64,000 nt of DNA from a virus (Duplodnaviria; Caudoviricetes), in the IMG/VR virus record IMGVR_UViG_3300017912_003441, positions 55,264-119,263 of that record; one strand, 5' to 3'. Below, one piece after another: positions 1,170 through 55,300 of the stretch; position 1 is the stretch's first letter, and every line of letters begins with the position of its first letter. Made by a program: the position numbers and the translations under genes. The notes under the pieces were generated by a model, which did not search any database, had not been told where the DNA came from, and saw only the letters and a list, made by a program, of their open reading frames with translations.

Positions 1170-1245
1170 TGGTGGGCCTTGTAGGATTTGAACCTACGGC
1201 CAATCGATTATGAGTCGACTGCTCTAACCGCTGAGCTAAAGGCCC
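1170..1245 (-). tRNA. tRNA-Ile2(CAT), lysidine type, reads ATA
   Basis: Canonical cloverleaf GGGCCTTTAGCTCAG...GACTCATAATC...ACCA; paired 1:72 and body resemble ileX rather than fMet. Confidence 0.88.
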
Positions 1246-11222: not shown

Positions 11223-11492
11223 TTAATTTCCTACAGTTTCCTCTTCTTCGACCCTAATGGGCCATACGCCATCAAAATGCATCTTACCTAATTCTTTATA
11301 TTTTTTTATACTTCCCTTACGCTCTTCTTTTAAGAATGTTACTTCGCCTTCAACACCTTCAAATACTTCGAAGTCTTTGATAGGACATTTAGCTTTCTTA
11401 CCTTCATCAGTTACAATCCTCGCATGAGTTGTGCCTTTAGGTCGCTTGAGTAGTTTTAAGTCTTGATAACTCATATCATTATTATATATCAA
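11223..11492 (-). CDS. hypothetical protein (likely start MSYQD...)
   Basis: ORF track. Confidence 0.65.
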   Translation of the reverse strand: MIYNNDMSYQDLKLLKRPKGTTHARIVTDEGKKAKCPIKDFEVFEGVEGEVTFLKEERKGSIKKYKELGKMHFDGVWPIRVEEEETVGN

Positions 11493-12250
11493 ATCTCGAT
11501 TGTTGCAACACCTTTTTTCTGGACTACTCGCGCAGCAAGATCATTAGCATAATGTAGAGCTTTATCTATATCTTGTTCATGAACATAAGAAGTCACTAAT
11601 CCGCACATGAAGGTATCACCAGCTCCAGATAAGTCGAAAACGTCTACAGGGTTGACAGGATATGTCTTACCATTATACATACAACCTTTACCCCCTAGCG
11701 TTACAATAACTTTATTTTTTACTTCAGATGATACATTATCTTTTGTAGCGTTCCATTCAGGTTCGTTTATCTTAATAAAAGCACATGACTTAAAATTATG
11801 ATCTAGAGTCTTCTTAGTATCAACAAACACTAATGGGTGAGCCTCGCAGATCTTTCTAATATCTTGTTGATGTAAGAACCCTTTACCATAATCTGATACA
11901 ATAATAGCATCCCATTTTTCACCAGCATTATATAATAATTCGTCTAAATTATCAGATTGTATCCGACTAACAGGTTTTTCAGTATCTACTCTAATGATAG
12001 TATGATTTGTCTTCTCATCAATGTATTTTCTCTTACAAATAAATTCCTCGTTAAACTTTGTATCAACATAACAGTCCCACTCTTTTAACTGTCGGGCTAC
12101 GTTACCAGCCATACCATCTGTCTGGACAGTCTTAACTGGTTTGAATACAGGTGCAGGAACATCCGGACAAAGACGCGTCACATTACCGTAAACGTACTGA
12201 TCAGCGCACTTATCACCAATGACCAAAATTCTTGGCTTATCAAATTTCAT
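11489..12250 (-). CDS. PfkB-family sugar kinase, HldE/RfaE heptose-7-phosphate kinase domain-like
   Basis: ILVIGD...YVYGNVTRLCP, GMAGNV, IIVSDYGKG, DLSGAGDTF. Confidence 0.88.
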   Translation of the reverse strand: MKFDKPRILVIGDKCADQYVYGNVTRLCPDVPAPVFKPVKTVQTDGMAGNVARQLKEWDCYVDTKFNEEFICKRKYIDEKTNHTIIRVDTEKPVSRIQSDNLDELLYNAGEKWDAIIVSDYGKGFLHQQDIRKICEAHPLVFVDTKKTLDHNFKSCAFIKINEPEWNATKDNVSSEVKNKVIVTLGGKGCMYNGKTYPVNPVDVFDLSGAGDTFMCGLVTSYVHEQDIDKALHYANDLAARVVQKKGVATIEI

Positions 12251-12284: not shown

Positions 12285-12626
12285 GTGACTAATTTGAAGA
12301 AATTAGAAAAGTTGACTAGACAGCTGGAGCTGCATGAAAACGACTTTATTAATTATGTTATTGAAGCGGATTATTCCATCGTGCTGGTATCCGAAGCAGG
12401 CAGAATTAAGTGGTGCAATGAATTCTTTCAACAGTCATTTAAAGTGGACAATACTGAAATCCACAACAAGGGTCTAAAAAGTATTATTGGTGTAGATATT
12501 TCTAAATGGTCTAGAAAGACATTCACAATAGATATCAATGGTGCCACTCACACAGTAAAGATAAGAGATCTAAATAGAAATGGCAAATTAATACATAAAA
12601 AAGTAACCCTTGTACCGCATGAGTAA
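12285..12626 (+). CDS. stand-alone PAS-like domain protein
   Basis: SIVLVSEAGRIKWCNEFFQQSF.....IHNKGLKSII fits the PAS core; ATAAATAA upstream. Confidence 0.6.
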   Translation: MTNLKKLEKLTRQLELHENDFINYVIEADYSIVLVSEAGRIKWCNEFFQQSFKVDNTEIHNKGLKSIIGVDISKWSRKTFTIDINGATHTVKIRDLNRNGKLIHKKVTLVPHE

Positions 12627-12849
12627 TGATCCAAATAAATTAGAAAATGGTTCTTGGGCTGAGTGGAGACGATTAGTACTCAGCGAACTAAGCCGTTTAA
12701 ACTCAGATATAGAAGAGCTTCAAAAGAACCAAAAGAAAATAGAAGTGCAATTAGCCACTCTAAGTACTAAAATAATTATGTATGGTGCTATTGGGGCTTC
12801 TGCAATCGGTTTCGCAACTTCATTAATATCATCTTACCTTAGTAAGTGA
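12619..12849 (+). CDS. coiled-coil protein with C-terminal TM (XhlA/holin-like)
   Basis: NGSWAEWRRLVLSELSRL coiled coil followed by a TM helix. Confidence 0.65.
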   Translation: MSNDPNKLENGSWAEWRRLVLSELSRLNSDIEELQKNQKKIEVQLATLSTKIIMYGAIGASAIGFATSLISSYLSK

Positions 12850-13139
12850 ACAATAAAGGGTATACGCTTTTAGAACTTCTACTTTGTATTACTATTATTC
12901 TAATACTTGTAGGTAATTTAGCAGGTAATTTTTACGCTGCTAAAGAAGTCGCTAAGGAAGTCCGTTGTAAGACTTATAGAAAGCAAATGGAACTATTCTA
13001 TTCTATGCCAGAGTTCGATTATACTCAGGACTATGGAGAGTATTCTGATTATACATCAGTTATAGACGAAATGGTGCTAATGTATAATGAATGTTATAGA
13101 TGTCACCCAAGTGTAAGTAACAATAACTGGAATCCCTAA
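12846..13139 (+). CDS. prepilin-type N-terminal cleavage/methylation protein with C-terminal CxxCH
   Basis: KG|YTLLELL class III signal; AKEVAKEVRC; CYRCH. Confidence 0.8.
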   Translation: MNNKGYTLLELLLCITIILILVGNLAGNFYAAKEVAKEVRCKTYRKQMELFYSMPEFDYTQDYGEYSDYTSVIDEMVLMYNECYRCHPSVSNNNWNP

Positions 13140-13147
13140 ATAATTAT

Positions 13148-14728
13148 ATGGATGAGAGTTTGCACCAATTAGCTGCGACAGGGAACTTAAGATGTATAAA
13201 AAAGGCGTTAGAAACTCCTAAATTATTTTATTCTACTGATGAAAATAACGGATGGACTCCACTTCACTACGCGTCTAATAAAAGTAAAGTAAAAATAGTA
13301 AGCGTTATTCTTGAAGCTGGAGTAGATCCGAACACTCCAAGTAAACCTGTAAGCGTTAGACAGAGTAGTTGGAACTTAGCGTTGATGGAGGACAAAGAAT
13401 GCCCAATAGTTACTGCTATGGATGTAGCTGATGGGCCTAATCGTCATAAAATTGTAGGTTCATTGAGAGACGCAGGAGGTATGTTTTATAATAAAGAACT
13501 TACTTTACATCAATGCGTACAGTTAGAAGATATAGATGAAATAGAAGGTCTACTAGAAGATGATAGTTTAAAAATTAATGCAAGAGACCATAGAGGTTGG
13601 ATGGCTTTACATTACGCTGTAGATATTAACAATATTAATATAGTTAAGCTTTTATTAGACGCTAAAGCCAACATAAACGGATCAACTTATAATCCTAATG
13701 ATCAATTCCATTATAATGCTTGGGAAATAGCTAATGCTAATAATAGTAATGTAATGCTAGACTACTTAGTTAATAGAGGAGCATGTAAACACCCTAGTAG
13801 GGATAATCCTAAATACAAACCAAGAGTCAATAATCAAGTTATTGACAATAAAGCTGCCGATGAAGCTTTAGGTCGCATAAGAAAAGAACGCAGAGAACAA
13901 GATGAAGATAGAAAAGCATTACAAGAACCTGATACATTATTAGGCAAACTGTTTGAATCAAAAGAGAAAAAAGAGAAAAGAGAAGCAGTAAAAAGTAGAA
14001 TAGCTGCTGAACAAGCTAAAGCAAGAAGAGAAGCAGCAGAGAAAATACAAAAAGAAGAAGAAAATAAAAAGAAGCAAAGAGTTATAAAATGGAAGTGGGG
14101 ACAAGATCCATTCAAGTTAAAAGGAGAAGGAATCCAATACGATTCTCCGTGTCGAGCTCATACCTACTTCATGGATATAGTAGGTTATTCTAAAAAGACT
14201 ACAGCTGAACAAAAGAAAGTAACTAATGAGTTAATTGATTATGTTAAAAGCACACAAGGTTATCAACAAGCGGATCGACAAGGCAAACTAATTATATTAC
14301 CTACTGGGGATGGTATGGCGTTAGTATTTTTTAATAGCGTTAATGCTGCATTTAAGTGTATGGTTGATGTAGGTCGTATGACTTATAAACATTCTAGTAT
14401 CGGCTTAAGGAATGGATTGTATTCTGGCCCAGTAGTACCTGTAAAAGATATAAATGATAATCCTAACGTTAGCGGTACAGGTATTAACATGGCTCAACGT
14501 TGCATGGATGCAGGAGATAATGATCACTTATTAATATCAAACGATGTACATCAGTATGTATGTGAAATGGATATACCTGGTTTACAGTTTGATGATTGGG
14601 GCCCTGTTATAGTTAAACACGGGACTACTGTTCATATGTGGACAGCATATGGTAATAATTTTGGTAGGAGAGAATTTCCTCATTGGAGAGGAACAAAAAA
14701 AGCAGAATTTAAAACAGAAGAAGAATGA
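13148..14728 (+). CDS. ankyrin-repeat / coiled-coil / class III nucleotidyl cyclase fusion
   Basis: GWTPLHYA and GWMALHYA ankyrin motifs; MDIVGYS, TGDG, GLYSGPV, GINMAQR cyclase motifs. Confidence 0.88.
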   Translation: MDESLHQLAATGNLRCIKKALETPKLFYSTDENNGWTPLHYASNKSKVKIVSVILEAGVDPNTPSKPVSVRQSSWNLALMEDKECPIVTAMDVADGPNRHKIVGSLRDAGGMFYNKELTLHQCVQLEDIDEIEGLLEDDSLKINARDHRGWMALHYAVDINNINIVKLLLDAKANINGSTYNPNDQFHYNAWEIANANNSNVMLDYLVNRGACKHPSRDNPKYKPRVNNQVIDNKAADEALGRIRKERREQDEDRKALQEPDTLLGKLFESKEKKEKREAVKSRIAAEQAKARREAAEKIQKEEENKKKQRVIKWKWGQDPFKLKGEGIQYDSPCRAHTYFMDIVGYSKKTTAEQKKVTNELIDYVKSTQGYQQADRQGKLIILPTGDGMALVFFNSVNAAFKCMVDVGRMTYKHSSIGLRNGLYSGPVVPVKDINDNPNVSGTGINMAQRCMDAGDNDHLLISNDVHQYVCEMDIPGLQFDDWGPVIVKHGTTVHMWTAYGNNFGRREFPHWRGTKKAEFKTEEE

Positions 14729-14871
14729 AACAACAAACCAAAGAATTAATATTAGTAGGTATAGGTATCCTATTTATACTCGCTGTGTGTCTGAGTTCAT
14801 GTGACAACACTGCAAATATAGCTGTACAAAAGCAAGACTTTCCTACACGGATAGGGTCAGGTATAAGATAA
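14725..14871 (+). CDS. small lipoprotein (48 aa, not in ORF track)
   Basis: MKQQTKELILVGIGILFILAVCLSSC lipobox; ATGA and TAATG coupling to its neighbours. Confidence 0.65.
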   Translation: MKQQTKELILVGIGILFILAVCLSSCDNTANIAVQKQDFPTRIGSGIR

Positions 14872-15122
14872 TGGATATTGATAGAGAAATAAAATTTTTA
14901 GAAAGAGGTACATTTTGGACTCCTGTTGTAGGTCTTATTATATGCTTCTTTCTTCTTTTTCTTTCTACTGGTTGTAGTGGTACTTGGGTATGGCAGGAAG
15001 ATTACCCTAAACATAGAACAATGTCATTTAAATGCCCGAGATGGAATTATGATCAAGCATATGATAGACTACATCACGCATGGTCAACTAGACAACACGA
15101 ACCAATAAAAATAAAAAAATGA
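14871..15122 (+). CDS. putative lipoprotein
   Basis: Hydrophobic segment ending in LSTGC. Confidence 0.65.
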   Translation: MDIDREIKFLERGTFWTPVVGLIICFFLLFLSTGCSGTWVWQEDYPKHRTMSFKCPRWNYDQAYDRLHHAWSTRQHEPIKIKK

Positions 15123-15472
15123 AGTTCCATGCTTACATAAAAGAAATAAGATTAAAATACTTCAAAGACTTAACTAAGTTTAGTAAGATACTTGGAGTAG
15201 AAAAGACAATGTGGCGTAAAGTTGAAAGAGGTATCAACCCACCTCCCAAACGCTCATTACTTAAACGATTTGCTAGCTTGACTCATATGCTAAGTTACGA
15301 AGAAGCTCAATTGCATGAGCTAGCAAGAAGATGGGAACCTTCGCCTGATACTAACACTAACAATCATATATTATTATCTGATGCTTCTAAGGCAGAATGG
15401 AGACAGGCTTTATTAGAAGAAAATACTCCAGACTACGAGCATAAATTTTGGGGAAAAAAAAGCCCCCGTTAG
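15119..15472 (+). CDS. XRE-family HTH protein
   Basis: FSKILGVEKTMWRKVERGINPPP. Confidence 0.75.
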   Translation: MKFHAYIKEIRLKYFKDLTKFSKILGVEKTMWRKVERGINPPPKRSLLKRFASLTHMLSYEEAQLHELARRWEPSPDTNTNNHILLSDASKAEWRQALLEENTPDYEHKFWGKKSPR

Positions 15473-15481
15473 GAGGCTTTT
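15454..15481. terminator. bidirectional terminator between convergent genes
   Basis: AAAAGCC..GGCTTTT hairpin. Confidence 0.65.
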
Positions 15482-15505: not shown

Positions 15506-15952
15506 TTAGGTACCGACACCAACGTTCCCATCTGCAGAACTACCTACACCGACATTACCATCAGTGCCTGTACTTCCAATACCTACGTTAGCTTCAGGCG
15601 CAGAACCGCCTACGTTACCAGATGATGTACCAACTCCGATGTTTCCATCTGTAGCTGTACTTCCAATTCCTACATTTCCTTCACTCATAGAAGTATTTAT
15701 AGGCTGAGACTGAATTAAATTAACTAATGTCGCAGCTGGTATTGTTACAGTAGGTGCAGAACTCCCGATCCCAATATTCCCATCTGCGTTTGTACCAATA
15801 CCAATATTACCAAGCGCTGGCGCCGGTTCTTCTAACAACCATTCATCTTCTTCTTCTAATGCGTCTACACGCGCGTCTAAATCAGCAATTGCACTTTGTA
15901 AGTCAGCAATAACTGTCCTAATTGATCTTCTTCGTCTACGGGGAATACTCAT
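15506..15952 (-). CDS. late protein with GN(V/I)G(I/V)G repeats
   Basis: Coiled coil followed by about 8 GNVGIG-type repeats; TATAAATA upstream. Confidence 0.75.
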   Translation of the reverse strand: MSIPRRRRRSIRTVIADLQSAIADLDARVDALEEEDEWLLEEPAPALGNIGIGTNADGNIGIGSSAPTVTIPAATLVNLIQSQPINTSMSEGNVGIGSTATDGNIGVGTSSGNVGGSAPEANVGIGSTGTDGNVGVGSSADGNVGVGT

Positions 15953-16016: not shown

Positions 16017-16622
16017 CTATGCGCTCACTGTAGATGTTGTAGAGGTACCATGAGGTACAATAGAAGCATTGAGAATGTCTAATACTTTCATCAAACCTTC
16101 AGGTGGTCCGTCGTCTCTAGCTTCAACATGTACATCGTATTTCGCTGAATTATCAGTCTTACGAGTACTTTCTGATTTACTTTGACTTGATACTGATGCC
16201 TTCATCTCGACACTTACTGGTGAATACCATGCACTGTATGAAACATCTGTACTTACATTAGCGTTGGTTGACGAGCTATCAGTTTGCACTGAGCTTGACT
16301 TTACTTCCATTGTAAAATCTACAGTCGCCTTTTTAACAGAAAGATTAGGAACATTAAGAATAGATAATAACGGTACTGATAATTTATCATCTACTAATTG
16401 GGTCGAACCGTCACTGTTTGTAACTGGAGCTTTAAAACCAAAATCAACAGAACGAGCCGAGACTGCTCCTCCACTTGAACTCGGCTCTGATAAACCTACA
16501 TCGTTAATAAACTGTTGAGTGTGTGTTGATAGTTTGCCTTGCGCTTTCGCTGCAGCTAACAAGGGTTGTCCTATCAAATCGGACATTGGAAGTCCTTTAA
16601 ATTGATCTGCGATACCTGCCAT
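16017..16622 (-). CDS. DUF2589-family protein
   Basis: FKGLPMSDLIGQPLLAAAKAQ...VPLLSILNVPNL...PPEGLMKVLDIL. Confidence 0.8.
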   Translation of the reverse strand: MAGIADQFKGLPMSDLIGQPLLAAAKAQGKLSTHTQQFINDVGLSEPSSSGGAVSARSVDFGFKAPVTNSDGSTQLVDDKLSVPLLSILNVPNLSVKKATVDFTMEVKSSSVQTDSSSTNANVSTDVSYSAWYSPVSVEMKASVSSQSKSESTRKTDNSAKYDVHVEARDDGPPEGLMKVLDILNASIVPHGTSTTSTVSA

Positions 16623-16672: not shown

Positions 16673-17170
16673 CTAAGATGGTAGTTGTTTAATCATCTCT
16701 TGTCGTATGCGAGCTATACCTTCAGGTGGTTCTGTAGAGTCAAGTTTCATTCGGACTTTAGCCATTCGCTTCCCATTAACAGAAGTAACTGCAGCACTAA
16801 TATCATCATTGTCAATATCTTCTAAGTGACCTAGCTCAACTTCAAAATCAATCTCTAACTCTTTAATATTGAGATGATTACCATGAGTTAATGTAATAAG
16901 AGGTACATCTACTTCTACAGGATCTCCATCGTGAGTCGGTAGACTTAACCTAAACAAATTAGGATGACCATCTTTATCAAAGAATCTTTCTAGAAAATGC
17001 TCAACAACCTGCTCGTCTACTTTACGCTGCGCCATAATAGTCGAGCGATAGATAGAACGTACTAACTGATTAAAAGTCTTTGCAGCTTTAGATTTAGTTT
17101 GCTTAGGTTTTGTTCCTCCAAAACCAACACTGCTTTCGTCATCATCTTTACCGTATGAATATTTTGGCAC
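16673..17170 (-). CDS. DUF2589-family protein (second type)
   Basis: VPLITLTHGNHLNIKELEIDFEV...EPPEGIARI. Confidence 0.75.
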   Translation of the reverse strand: MPKYSYGKDDDESSVGFGGTKPKQTKSKAAKTFNQLVRSIYRSTIMAQRKVDEQVVEHFLERFFDKDGHPNLFRLSLPTHDGDPVEVDVPLITLTHGNHLNIKELEIDFEVELGHLEDIDNDDISAAVTSVNGKRMAKVRMKLDSTEPPEGIARIRQEMIKQLPS

Positions 17171-17266: not shown

Positions 17267-18286
17267 TCATAGTTCTAAGTTTAATCTTTCTATTGTTATA
17301 TTAAACCAATTAGTAGGTTTAGGCTTATTAGTAGGTATTTTTGAAAAGTTTATATTAGGGCTAAACGTTGCGTAACCTGCTTGCTCAGCGTCATTACTAT
17401 TAGCATATTGTTCGTAGTGATTAGGGAGTGGTACCATTAATAAAGGCTTACAGAGGTTAATAGCTTCAGAGCTGGTTTCGAATCCTCCTGTACAGATAAC
17501 ACTTGAACATACTTTCATACGTTGCTGAAATAATTCAGCATCTACATTAAACAATTTAACATTATCTGGCACGTTAATGTGTTCTTTAGTGAGCCTAGTA
17601 AAGCATTCTACTTTAGTATCAGGATATTTTCTAGCCTCATTAAACAAATCTCTTAGCATTCCTTCGTTAATGAGATAACAAAGAATAAAGTCCTCGTTAT
17701 CAGCACTCTTTATATAGGCTTGTTTTCTTAATAAAGGAGGGGATATCGTTATCTTTGCATCAGGAATATCATAATAACTTAATCCGATTTTACACGATCT
17801 AAGAGATGTAGCCCAGTTAAGTATTTTTAGAAATAGCTTTTGAATCTTAAATCCTTCAATCTTAGGGTATGCTGACTGTGTCATACAAAACTGATGACTA
17901 ATACTAACATACTTAGTCTGCCAATTAATCAAAGATGACAAGCCTACAAGTGGGTCATAAAAGTTAACTATAATATCTGGTTTAGTTACTTTAATATGAT
18001 ATAAAATTTTTATCAAAGAGTATATTATTATCGGTAGCTTGATTGTATTATGCAAAAATGTTTTCCATAAAACCACTCTTCCTGTACTATCAAAAATAAA
18101 ATCAAAGCCACTATACGTAAATAATTTGAATTCATCTTTAAAGTATTGAGGTATACCTTTTTTTTTGTTTGGTACAACAGCGCTTACAATTTCATACTCT
18201 TCTTTATTTAAATGTTCTTTAAGAGCGAGCGCTTGCGTTAAATGCCCATTACCTTCTGTACACGCACTTACTAAAATTCTTTTCAT
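17267..18286 (-). CDS. GT-B glycosyltransferase (MJ1255/GT28-like)
   Basis: EGNGHLTQA; TGGFETSSEA..LCKPLLMVP...HYEQYAN. Confidence 0.85.
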   Translation of the reverse strand: MKRILVSACTEGNGHLTQALALKEHLNKEEYEIVSAVVPNKKKGIPQYFKDEFKLFTYSGFDFIFDSTGRVVLWKTFLHNTIKLPIIIYSLIKILYHIKVTKPDIIVNFYDPLVGLSSLINWQTKYVSISHQFCMTQSAYPKIEGFKIQKLFLKILNWATSLRSCKIGLSYYDIPDAKITISPPLLRKQAYIKSADNEDFILCYLINEGMLRDLFNEARKYPDTKVECFTRLTKEHINVPDNVKLFNVDAELFQQRMKVCSSVICTGGFETSSEAINLCKPLLMVPLPNHYEQYANSNDAEQAGYATFSPNINFSKIPTNKPKPTNWFNITIERLNLEL

Positions 18287-18987
18287 AGTTTAATTAATTT
18301 TATTTCACCTTCAGTCGTCTCAATCACGCAAGTATTTGATTCAACAAAATCACCACAATTAACATAATGTATGCTATCTTTTTTATAATCTGCTGGTTTG
18401 TGTATATGACCGGTAATAACACCATTACTTTTACTATTTTTAACAAATTTAAAAACAGCGTCTTCATAATTCGCCATATATTTTACAGCTTCTTTAGCTC
18501 TACTTTTGAGAAATTTACTAAAGCTAAATTTAAACCATCTAGTTATTTTATTAAGAGCTAAGCTTAATTCGTAGAACTTTGCGCCTATAACTTGAATCCA
18601 TTTATGTTTAGTAATAACCCCATCAAATTGATCCCCATGAATAATAATATATTCTCTACCTCTAAGAGTTTTATGATATGCTGTTCTACATATTTTTATG
18701 TCTCCTAGGAAATAACCATCAAAATAAGATAAGAAATCATCATGATTACCCCAGATATATCTAATTTTAACACCCTTTCTAGAGTGTTTTAGTAGCTTTT
18801 GAATAATAGTATTATAGTTCGGATGCCACCTAAAATTATTTCTAAGTAACCAACCATCAATAAAATCTCCTACGATGTATATATACTCACATTCTATATT
18901 TTTAATAAGGTTGAGTATTATTTCGTGATTACTATACTCAGAACCTAAATGGCAATCTGATATGAAAAGGGATCTCACCTTCATCAC
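18283..18987 (-). CDS. metallophosphoesterase, LpxH/PlcP (phospholipase C)-like
   Basis: SDCHLG, VGDFIDGW, GNHD, HGDQFD, GHIH, NCGDFVES motifs. Confidence 0.88.
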   Translation of the reverse strand: MMKVRSLFISDCHLGSEYSNHEIILNLIKNIECEYIYIVGDFIDGWLLRNNFRWHPNYNTIIQKLLKHSRKGVKIRYIWGNHDDFLSYFDGYFLGDIKICRTAYHKTLRGREYIIIHGDQFDGVITKHKWIQVIGAKFYELSLALNKITRWFKFSFSKFLKSRAKEAVKYMANYEDAVFKFVKNSKSNGVITGHIHKPADYKKDSIHYVNCGDFVESNTCVIETTEGEIKLIKL

Positions 18988-24413: not shown

Positions 24414-24489
24414 TGGAGCCAGTTGTCAGATTCGAACCGACGACCGTTCGATTACAAATCGAGTGCTCTACCAACTGAGCTAAACTGGC
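24414..24489 (-). tRNA. tRNA-Thr(TGT)
   Basis: Canonical cloverleaf, anticodon loop TTTGTAA, CCA encoded. Confidence 0.95.
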
Positions 24490-25556: not shown

Positions 25557-25633
25557 TGGCACTCCAGACTGGACTTGAACCAGTAACCACCTGCTTAGAA
25601 GGCAGATGCTCTATCCAATTGAGCTACTGGAGC
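25557..25633 (-). tRNA. tRNA-Arg(TCT)
   Basis: Canonical cloverleaf, loop CTTCTAA, CCA encoded. Confidence 0.95.
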
Positions 25634-25938: not shown

Positions 25939-26025
25939 TGGTACCAGTGGTCGGACTCGAACCGACAAGCCCAAAAGGGCGACAGATTTTAAGTCTGTTG
26001 TGTTTGCCAATTTCACCACACTGGC
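25939..26025 (-). tRNA. tRNA-Leu(TAA)
   Basis: Long variable arm, loop CTTAAAA, CCA encoded. Confidence 0.95.
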
Positions 26026-52300: not shown

Positions 52301-55300
52301 TAATGCTTGTCTACCAATAGCAACTAGTTGCGCTCCAGTTGTGTTGTCATATAAAGCAGCATAACCAACTCCGGTGTTATAATTAGCTGTTGTGTTACAT
52401 TGCAAGGTAGCGTAACCAAGTGCTACGTTACCTATACCGGTTGTGTTATACAACATAGAATGTGTACCGACTGTGGTGTTATAACTACCAGTAGTAGTAC
52501 ATCTAGCAGCTCGATAACCACTTGCAGTATTATTACAAGCTGTTGTTTGCATTTGGAGAGAACCATATCCAGTTGCAGTATTTCTTAAACCAGTTGTGTT
52601 GGATGCTAGAGCTAAACCACCAACTGCGGTGTTACATGCTCCTGTTGTATTAGCAAATAAAGAACAACCACCAACTGCTGTGTTAAAGCTTGCTGTTGTG
52701 TTGTTGTATAAAGATAACCTACCAACTGACGTGTTAAGAGTACCAGTAGTATTGTTTTGTAGCGCTGATGTACCAAACGCAGCATTGTCTGCAGCTGTAG
52801 TATTTTTATATAAAGAATATGTACCGCTAGCAGTATTGTTCGAACCTGTAGTATTGTTGGAAAGAGCAGATCGACCAACGGCGACGTTATTAGCCCCTGT
52901 TGTGTTTGCAAGCATCGCTAAGCTACCGGCTGCAGTATTCTTAGAGCCTATAGTGGTTAACTTTAATGATTGATAACCAACCGCGACGTTATTATCTCCA
53001 CAAGTACTAGTCGTAAGAGCCTGATAACCAACTGCAACGTTATTAGCACCTGTTGTATTAGCAAATAAAGAACAACCACCAACCGCTGTATTAAAACAAG
53101 CTGTTGTATTTGAACAGAGAGCTGAACTACCAAGTGCAACATTTTGACAACCTGTTGTATTATCTTCTAAAGCTAGCACACCAAACGCAGCGTTACAACC
53201 ACCAGTTGTATTCAATCGCAATGCTTTATAACCACTAGCAGTATTATACGCACCGGTGGTGTTAGAACATAAAGTATGAAAACCAACTGCTGTGTTATAA
53301 GAAGCTGTAGTGTTACAATATAAAGCACTACCGCCAACTGCAACATTACAAGCACCTGTTGTGTTACATTTCATTGATGCTTCACCAAACGCAGTATTTA
53401 CATTAGCAGTAGTATTCGCATACAAAGCATACGCTCCGCTAGCTGTGTTTTGACAGCCAGAAGAGTTACAAAACAAAGCTGCAAATCCAACTGCTGAATT
53501 CCATCTACCAGTCGTATTATACCTTAACGCAGCTCGACCTAACGCTACATTTTTGCAACCTGTTGTATTAGCGTATAGAGCATCTTGACCTACACTTGCG
53601 TTGTCACAACCACTAGTATTTGAACGCAAAGCGCTTGTACCTATTGCGACGTTATACAGACCTGTTGTTAGACCGTTTAATGCGCATGTACCGAACTTAG
53701 CATTAGCATTTTCATCACTACAATAACCACCATTAGCGCTAACATAACCACTCAATGTAAGATTACCTGCTAAGTCAATATTGTCATTAAAATCTATTGC
53801 AGTACCACCTGTAACTGAATTAAATGCATCAGCATAGACTGTACCACTTGCACTAATATTACCTGAAACTGTAAGCTTTTCATTTGGATCAGTTGTTCCT
53901 ATACCAACTTTACCGTCGGATACGACTGTCATTATGCTATCAGCGATTACAGCATTAGCTGCATTAGCGCCATTATCTAACGCAAAATGCATTTTTCCAC
54001 GGGCGTAAACATCTTGACTTTCGTATATTATGGCTCCTTTTTGATAAGTACCTCCAGTGTAACCAAACTGAATACCTAAATAGGTACCGGGGGTACCTAT
54101 ATTATTTGCTTGTAGGGAAACCGGGAAATAATCGCCAGATGTCCTATATAACGTTAATTGATTCGATGGATTGTTAGTACCTATACCAACATTACCACCA
54201 TCTTCAATATAGAAAGCAGATGTACCATCATCTTGAAAATCTACTAGAGGTTGGGAACCTGTCTGATTTAACTCTAATGCAGGACCTGTACCAGCATTAC
54301 ATATACACATTGCCTCTGTAGCAGTAACTGTTGTGTTTAATGTTGTACATGTTCCATGTACTATAAGATTACCAGCAATAGTAGCATCTCCTGTTGAGTG
54401 CAAACAACCACCACATACTTTTGTACAACCAACAACGTTACCTGCGGTTTGTATAACACTACCACAACTTACTATATTACCACAATTGCATATAAGATTA
54501 GTAGCACATATATTATTTGCTGTTAGATCCCCAGTTAAAGTAACATCATCATTAAATGTAATCTCACTACCACCAGTAATAGAATTAAATGCATCAGCAT
54601 AGACTGTACCACTTGCACTAATATTACCTGAAACTGTAAGCTTCTCATTTGGATCGGTTGTTCCTATTCCAACATTACCAGCGCTTAATATATTAAGATT
54701 ACTATTGTTTAGTCCATTACACTGACCTAAAGAAGCAACCCCATTAGATGCATTAATATAAGCATTGGTAGTAGAGTCATTAATTAGTATTCTACCACCG
54801 GCATCTGAACTAGAAAACTTACTTATAATATCATCAGAAGTATATACATGTAAACTCTTGCCTGGAATAGTAGTACCTATACCAACATGACCACCATCTT
54901 GAATAAACATTTCAGTGGTACTACCACCGTCTGTAGAAAATATTATACCTTCATTTGTAGCATTAGGATTAGCTAATATTCTTAAACTTTCATTAGTTGG
55001 TCCAATAATATCTCTCGCACCCCCGTCTCCTAGTCTAATGTTTCCATCAACTTCAAGTAGTTCAGTTGGATTAGTAGTACCTATACCAACATTACCATCC
55101 CCGTTAATTGTTAAACGATCGGTAGTACCTAAACCATTATTTCTAGCAATTTTAAACTTATCTCCATCACTATTATCAATACCAATAGTGTAAGATCTAC
55201 CACTTATATTAAAATGTAAAGAAGCATCTCCAGAAGAACTATTTTGCAATAGAGCTGTTGGGGTTGCATCTGTGTCTGAATTAACTACTACTAATTTATT

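Follow-up and report, generated by a model that had tools for sequence, protein, structure and literature searches.

Domain organization and catalytic residues of the ankyrin-cyclase protein

The DNA analyzed here, from an uncultured marine phage, is a window of 64,000 nucleotides (positions 55,264 to 119,263 of the IMG/VR virus record IMGVR_UViG_3300017912_003441), part of a 119-kb viral contig that is 59% complete according to CheckV. The DNA polymerase of the contig shares approximately 30% identity with gp43 of T4-like cyanophages, and the sheath protein resembles gp18; the phage is hence a distant T4-like myovirus, with no close relative in culture. The subject of this analysis is a plus-strand gene at window positions 13148-14728, whose 526-amino-acid (aa) product joins ankyrin repeats to a domain with the fold of class III nucleotidyl cyclases.

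This gene is a real open reading frame (ORF), and its limits in the ORF listing agree exactly with those proposed in an initial annotation of the DNA. Pfam searches and an AlphaFold2 (AF2) model distinguished three parts within the product: an ankyrin-repeat domain (residues 1-210; 13148-13777) with a β-hairpin insert (residues 70-81), a charged linker (residues 211-334; 13778-14149) and a class III cyclase-homology domain (residues 335-505; 14150-14662). The mean predicted local distance difference test (pLDDT) value of the full-length model was 81, rising to ~90 in the ankyrin domain. No signal peptide was identified in the protein.

The fusion to ankyrin repeats, claimed in the initial annotation, was readily confirmed. 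Pfam families of the clan Ank match residues ~5-215 as tandem repeats with E-values from 1e-8 to 1e-17 (Ank_2, 2.7e-17; Ank, 6.9e-15; Ank_4, 3.8e-14), the protein matches ankyrin-1/2 in the PDB at 6e-27, and the AF2 model displays the paired helices expected of such repeats.

Assignment of the C-terminal domain relied on several lines of comparison. The score for PF00211 (Guanylate_cyc) was 12.2 bits with the whole protein and 15.4 bits with its C-terminal 211 residues, against a Pfam cut-off of 21.9 bits. This weak score does not mean that the domain is absent, because the C-terminal piece (14093-14725) matched solved cyclase domains in phmmer searches, i.e. 1ybt (Rv1900c/LipJ; 1.8e-4) and 3mr7 (5.6e-4), with FMDIVGYS paired to FTDIVGST, PTGDGM to TAGDGF, and SGTGINMAQR to AGVAVHIGAR. 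A profile of the domain family (alignment A3) gave stronger matches in the PDB: 3mr7 at 3e-12, 1ybt at 2e-10 and Ma1120 at 4e-9. The domain-only alignment was used for this purpose instead of alignment A2, whose PDB matches were dominated by ankyrins.

An AF2 model of the domain, calculated from a 41-sequence alignment, reached a pLDDT of 89.6 and a predicted template modelling score of 0.86. Foldseek retrieved 188 PDB matches for it at E ≤ 0.001 (best E ~1e-10), and all those listed are class III adenylyl or guanylyl cyclases. VIA-align superimposed it on such structures with root-mean-square deviations (rmsd) of 2.3-2.9 Å over 156-166 residues, the Z-scores being 19.6 for Ma1120 (rmsd 2.4 Å, 159 residues), 19.4 for Rv1900c and 19.2-19.4 for Rv1264. 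The predicted fold, the similarity to proven members and the set of catalytic motifs thus make it clear that the modelled domain has a class III cyclase fold, as the initial annotation had supposed.

The catalytic motifs MDIVGYS, ILPTGDG and INMAQR are likewise intact, and in HMMER alignments they match those of 1ybt and 3mr7. The first metal-binding residue, Asp343 (codon 14174-14176, within FMDIVGYS), aligns to FTDIVGST of 1ybt. The second, Asp388, closes the segment Leu384-Pro-Thr-Gly-Asp388 (14297-14311), which aligns to TAGDG of 1ybt and TTGDG of 3mr7. The segment Asn440…Asn447-Met-Ala-Gln-Arg451 (14465-14500) carries the transition-state Asn447 and Arg451. These four residues, together with the phosphate-binding Arg421 and with Lys490 of a VKHG motif (full-length numbering), are invariant in alignments A2, A3 and A4, which comprise the phage family and bacterial relatives at 33 to 98% identity; all catalytic residues are retained in 48 phage homologues (33-88% identity) and in the bacterial relatives. 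Judged by this conservation, the catalytic features are not a chance resemblance.

Base specificity was examined at two positions. One lies four residues ahead of the second metal Asp and is Lys in adenylyl cyclases but Glu in guanylyl cyclases; the other lies seven ahead of the catalytic Asn (Asp in adenylyl cyclases; Cys, Ser or Thr in guanylyl cyclases). The first position is Leu384, or Ile383 if a one-residue gap in the profile alignment to 3mr7/1ybt is followed, and in either case it is neither Lys nor Glu. The second is Asn440, which aligns with the adenine-selecting Asp of the GDIFG motif of 3mr7. Neither canonical pair was therefore found, and the Leu384/Asn440 pair is invariant in the phage family. 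It is the norm across the whole subfamily and not a phage peculiarity; the shared signature reads FMDIVGYS, LPTGDGMALVF, DIN.N.NV.G.GIN.AQR.MD.GD..H and VKHG. The statement of the initial annotation that the substrate is unclear from the sequence still stands.

The linker connecting the two domains had been described as a charged coiled coil, and the first half of that description holds: 47 of 90 residues are Lys, Arg, Glu or Asp. The second half fits less well, as large hydrophobic residues of the heptad type are few; the linker could form a coiled coil, and a single charged helix of the ER/K type fits equally well. In the full-length AF2 model residues 211-234 are disordered, residues 235-258 and 272-309 form helices with pLDDT values of 60-74, and residues 310-334 have low confidence yet are conserved in sequence (…VIKWKWG.DPFKLKG…). 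Among 48 homologues, column identity in the linker is ~0.3, compared with 0.7-0.9 in the cyclase domain, the best-conserved portion of the protein. The length of the linker stays between 89 and 109 residues, in the manner of a fixed-length spacer.

Relatives, occurrence and the upstream TAAATA signal

Related proteins are numerous, and the family with the ankyrin fusion is large and phage-specific. An exhaustive search returned 3,525 cluster representatives at E ≤ 1e-3, with 300 of these at E ≤ 1e-30, while a word-indexed search returned 1,716 proteins. The best 120 of the latter, ranging from 98% down to 44% identity, nearly all combine ankyrin repeats with a cyclase domain and mostly originate from marine metagenomes (Tara, ENA, JGI). 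Homologues are carried on contigs of up to 162 kb, and some bear the JGI pipeline label “ankyrin repeat protein/class 3 adenylate cyclase”. The architecture is hence known to automatic annotation and is unstudied: in the literature searched, no paper describing a phage protein of this fused type was found. Among GenBank phages there was no protein similar to the ankyrin-cyclase, and DNA matches were at the level of tRNAs only.

The nearest non-phage relatives are 36-46% identical and come overwhelmingly from soil Verrucomicrobiota (Chthoniobacterales, Udaeobacter) and Acidobacteriota, where a genome often has several of them. All 33 bacterial relatives sampled contain PF00211, 13 contain a protein kinase domain and ~13 contain TPR. 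The initial annotation had called for a phylogeny against PycC and verrucomicrobial cyclases. A maximum-likelihood tree was calculated for 55 phage and 72 bacterial domains, unrooted and with half of the bacterial rows left out; the phage sequences occupied one side of a branch with SH-aLRT support of 100, which sets them apart from the bacterial cyclases. This placement is consistent with the ankyrin fusion having arisen once in phages. PycC was compared by profile, and the phage domain gave no match.

Nearly identical DNA was present in metagenomes of seawater, estuaries and marine biofilms, which represent nine studies or more. Parts of the gene are covered, at 90-99% identity, by contigs of three marine metatranscriptome studies; one of these contigs, 572 nt long, has a depth of ~43 over 13418-13988. 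Such cover is weak evidence of transcription, since RNA libraries can hold DNA; equally, the parts of the surrounding gene island that are uncovered in contigs from RNA runs should not be read as silent.

A hexamer, TAAATA (13137-13142, plus strand), lies 5 nt before the start codon of the cyclase gene. The sequence directly preceding the ATG is CTAAATAATTAT-ATG, and it is identical in the closest related locus, L002. Of the 111 genes of the contig, 23 (0.63 expected) have the hexamer 3-9 nt upstream of the ATG, and a Shine-Dalgarno-like sequence was found in only six contig genes. The hexamer resembles the T4 late promoter, TATAAATA. TAAATA heads structural operons, standing at -16 for the sheath, -11 for the tube, -7 for a gp25-like baseplate wedge, and -6, -10 and -26 for tail fibres; it is essentially absent from the replication module (contig positions 164-16250). 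Examples within the window lie at 13137 and 12272, and upstream of 15952, 16622, 18984 and 58616. A scan for sigma-70 promoters revealed no enrichment over shuffled sequences.

The cyclase gene has its own copy of TAAATA even though the preceding ORF ends 8 bp upstream. This distribution suggests that it is probably a late gene, transcribed together with virion genes on a nearly leaderless mRNA. In more distant relatives the cyclase ATG is preceded at 5-8 nt by TGTAATA, which is enriched before genes of their loci (in locus L005, 7 occurrences versus 0.12 expected) and is never used in the present genome (0 of 131). We read it, from this pattern, as a lineage variant of the same signal.

Neighbouring genes

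The cyclase gene is situated in a plus-strand island (12285-15472) within a region encoded mainly on the minus strand. It is preceded by genes for a PAS-like protein (113 aa), a membrane protein (79 aa) and, directly upstream, a 97-aa protein (12846-13139, plus strand) with a type IV pilin-like N-methylation motif (Pfam N_methyl, 5e-6). The pilin-like gene is unusual in a T4-like phage and may be a hint of the host.

Three small plus-strand genes follow. The first, an unlisted ORF, encodes a 48-aa lipoprotein-like product (14725-14871; …LAVCLSSC…) without a family match, and its ATG overlaps the stop codon of the cyclase gene (ATGA), suggesting translational coupling. The second (14871-15122) encodes an 83-aa membrane or lipoprotein-like protein. 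The third (15119-15472) encodes a 117-aa protein that is probably an XRE/Cro-type helix-turn-helix (HTH) regulator; in a language-model feature space its neighbours are HTH_31 and HTH_3 at 0.95-0.98, which we take as a lead. A terminator-like hairpin (15463-15475, minus strand) marks the convergent end of the island.

According to tblastn, the 117-aa gene lies near the cyclase gene in all six related viral loci (L002-L007; 54-77% identity), and the 83-aa gene in five of them (L003-L007; 59-89%), L002 giving no match. The order and orientation of neighbours vary among these loci, and the genes upstream of the cyclase do not recur. None of the small proteins beside the cyclase matched known effector families.

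Further genes were noted around the island. A 148-aa protein (15506-15952, minus strand), preceded by TAAATA, is built mostly from D-G-N-[IV]-G-[IV]-G-[ST] repeats and may be a small fibre-like component of the virion. Two adjacent genes for DUF2589 proteins (16017-16622 and 16673-17170, minus strand; 2e-37 and 4e-17) follow, the first of which also has TAAATA. At 17267-18987 (minus strand) an LpxH-like metallophosphoesterase is coupled to a glycosyltransferase of the MJ1255/VC2487 family, and an HldE domain-I-like heptose-7-phosphate kinase (11489-12250, minus strand) flanks the island; these three are envelope or sugar-nucleotide genes. The metallophosphoesterase (18283-18987) was considered as a phosphodiesterase of cyclic nucleoside monophosphates (cNMPs) and rejected, being LpxH-like and not CpdA-like. 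A DHH phosphoesterase-like gene is located upstream of the window (contig positions 7768-8667; PHROG 4771, 2.8e-16); some DHH enzymes degrade cyclic or linear dinucleotides.

Four tRNA genes were identified on the minus strand of the window (1170-1245, 24414-24489, 25557-25633 and 25939-26025; Met-CAT, Thr-TGT, Arg-TCT and Leu-TAA). Hints of the host conflict with one another: the contig of a relative was binned in a Crocinitomicaceae metagenome-assembled genome, a pilin-like gene is present, the closest cyclase relatives are from Verrucomicrobiota, and Shine-Dalgarno sequences are almost absent. Searches with four other contig proteins (tblastn) gave no information on lineage or function.

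Proposed role and comparison with known systems

On balance, we lean moderately towards the view that the protein is a soluble, ankyrin-tethered and active class III cyclase that is expressed late and whose product acts on the host. In the proposed mechanism, the N-terminal ankyrin solenoid would dock onto a protein partner, and a long charged helical spacer would join it to the cyclase domain, which would convert a nucleoside triphosphate (NTP) into a 3′,5′-cyclic nucleotide and pyrophosphate by two-metal catalysis. The enzyme would most likely be a homodimer, as are all class III cyclases; a complex prediction with two copies of residues 230-526 scored 0.00, which says nothing either way about dimerization. 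The ankyrin domain probably determines the place or time of cyclase activity. If produced along with virion proteins, as is probable, the enzyme would act at a late stage of infection or in the cell infected next.

ATP, yielding cyclic AMP (cAMP), is the most likely substrate, although the base cannot be read from the sequence. This preference has two grounds: the characterized compact cyclases Ma1120, Rv1900c and Rv1264 are adenylyl cyclases according to their PDB titles, and mycobacterial cyclases with non-canonical base-selecting residues still make mainly cAMP. One cyclase with such residues is Rv0386, which has a Gln/Asn pair at these positions.

The target of the product was considered in the light of searches for partner proteins. 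No PF00027 (cNMP_binding) domain scored above the cut-off on the contig (best score 11.9 bits) or in five related viral records, all of them fragments, and no adjacent effector of the PycTIR or PycTM type was recognized in the same six records. As these searches revealed no receptor carried by the phage, cNMP receptors of the host are the most likely target of the product.

Several observations weigh against this interpretation or parts of it. The PF00211 score of 12-15 bits lies below the 21.9-bit cut-off, and the purine-selecting Lys and Asp are absent, so that these residues support a claim of neither adenylyl nor guanylyl specificity. No characterized member of the subfamily, phage or bacterial, was found in the searched literature. 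Expression timing was deduced solely from the association of a motif with gene classes, and the more distant relatives carry TGTAATA in place of TAAATA. Finally, the viral records examined are 8-59% complete, and a receptor or phosphodiesterase could lie elsewhere in these genomes.

The initial annotation had proposed host reprogramming. Because the upstream signal is of the late type, a simple early take-over of the host is unlikely, unless the protein travels in the virion. The latter case deserves mention, as T4 Alt is packed in the virion and injected with the DNA. If the cyclase were treated in this way, its ankyrin domain might dock it in the particle or find a host target, and a cyclic nucleotide, perhaps, in view of the Leu/Asn pair, other than cAMP or cGMP, would flood the next host within seconds. 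We consider this scenario improbable.

The same annotation had suggested decoy signalling against cyclic-nucleotide immunity and named Pycsar among the related systems, and here the link turned out to be remote. The phage domain matched none of the PADLOC PycC models (E ≤ 1), the A3 profile retrieved no Pycsar structure from the PDB even at E ≤ 10, and, as described above, no effector with a cyclic nucleotide-binding domain was seen. Weak matches to a PADLOC PycC model came from 10 of 24 aligned members, all of them bacterial relatives (best 1e-6). Decoy signalling is purely conjectural, as is the further suggestion of the initial annotation that ligands bound by the ankyrin repeats trigger the enzyme.

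The bacterial matches bear on the best-surviving alternative, which we nevertheless regard as unlikely: a sensor-and-signal module for competition between phages or superinfection exclusion. According to this hypothesis the ankyrin domain senses a protein of a competitor, and the resulting cNMP activates effectors in the membrane, possibly encoded by the operon's small lipoprotein-like genes, with the XRE-type regulator in control. It can explain why the 48-aa and 83-aa lipoprotein-like genes and the XRE-like gene follow the cyclase, the 117-aa gene being kept in 6/6 and the 83-aa gene in 5/6 loci, and it agrees with the make-up of the closest cellular relatives, in which this cyclase domain is combined with kinases and with sensors made of repeats (TPR, WD40-like). 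A preprint (10.64898/2026.08.12.744502) further predicts an “immune clade 1”, in which cNMP cyclases are joined to STAND NTPases and for which TPR is one of the domains listed; the bacterial relatives may belong to this clade. However, the phage domain itself has no PycC-model match, a cNMP-binding domain was not found in the six viral records, and the small proteins resemble no known effector family. The strong conservation of the family is also unlike that of fast-evolving defence genes.

Counter-defence is less probable still, about on a par with virion packaging. Here the cyclic nucleotide would flood the cell and block or desensitize receptors of the Pycsar/Pucsar type, or its synthesis would drain the NTP used by a host cyclase. 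The fold and chemistry are the same as in defence cyclases, and the non-canonical base-selecting residues would allow for an unusual product. A late gene would also suit the many abortive systems that are triggered late, upon the appearance of capsid proteins. Making the host's own signal, on the other hand, would trigger abortive infection and not block it, and nothing shows that the host carries such a system. In the papers found, the means by which phages are known to counter such systems are nucleases (Apyc1, Acb1) and sponges rather than synthases (PMC9117128, PMC13712596).

The least probable option is a catalytically silent scaffold, in which the cyclase domain merely binds nucleotides or dimerizes and the ankyrin domain does the work: the Pfam score is under threshold and regulatory class III pseudo-enzymes exist (the soluble guanylate cyclase β subunit, the C2 half-site of mammalian adenylyl cyclase), but such pseudo-enzymes have usually lost one or both metal Asp residues or the Asn/Arg pair, whereas here all residues needed for catalysis are invariant across ~50 phage and more than 70 bacterial sequences.

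An active, ankyrin-tethered cyclase would be of interest because cyclic nucleotides have central roles both in the physiology of bacteria (cAMP-CRP) and in their immunity to phages (Pycsar, Pucsar, CBASS). Phages that degrade or sequester these signals are known, while a phage making one is barely documented. The ankyrin-cyclase family, abundant in the ocean, strongly conserved and, to judge from its residues, apparently active, is a clean test case, whose product, ankyrin partner and timing are measurable by standard methods. It also offers a first functional handle on a large bacterial cyclase subfamily without the textbook base-selecting residues. New in the present analysis are the promoter motif, the conserved neighbours and the metatranscriptome cover of the gene.

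Among solved structures, the best or near-best sequence matches are the mycobacterial cyclases Rv1900c/LipJ (cyclase-homology domain; 1ybt, 1ybu), Ma1120 (4wp9) and Rv1264 (1y10, 1y11). They share the fold and the metal-Asp, Asn and Arg motifs with the phage domain, at an identity of only ~20%. These enzymes are cellular and have lipase-like or pH-sensing partners, whereas the phage protein is viral and has an ankyrin partner. Ma1120 and 3mr7 possess the Lys/Asp pair, in contrast to the Leu/Asn of the phage protein.

Much closer is the bacterial subfamily fused to TPR or kinase domains, with 36-46% identity over the whole domain and E-values down to 1e-46. It shares the signature motifs, a G-x-x-E/x-P tail, and Leu or Ile plus Asn at the base-selecting positions. 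Its partners are TPR, kinase or β-propeller domains, while the phage proteins have ankyrin repeats and form a clade of their own; judging from these identities, no bacterial relative is close enough to be a recent donor. PycC of Pycsar and PucC of Pucsar are also members of the class III superfamily and share its two-metal chemistry, and a few changes of base-contacting residues let the class III fold make cCMP, cUMP or cGMP (PMC11224242; 10.64898/2026.08.12.744502). The base-selecting residues reported for these enzymes (Y50/D94/R97; F100/R142/Q144) have no counterpart in the phage domain, which has Leu four positions before the second metal Asp.

The sole precedent found in the literature for a cyclase of marine phages comes from uncultivated pelagiphages, including metagenome-assembled genomes of Myoviridae, in which adenylate cyclase genes occur in curli (type VIII secretion system) clusters (PMC9599517). 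There the cyclase accompanies CsgG, CsgF and CsgA together with a histidine kinase and FecR, and ankyrin repeats are not mentioned (PMC9599517). A curli linkage was rejected for the present gene, as no CsgG was found on the 119-kb contig. Ankyrin-only proteins (ANKp) of environmental phages, the “ankyphages” of sponges, reportedly act on the eukaryotic host. The protein described here, which has no signal peptide, is likewise a phage-borne ankyrin protein, and adds an enzyme domain to the repeats.

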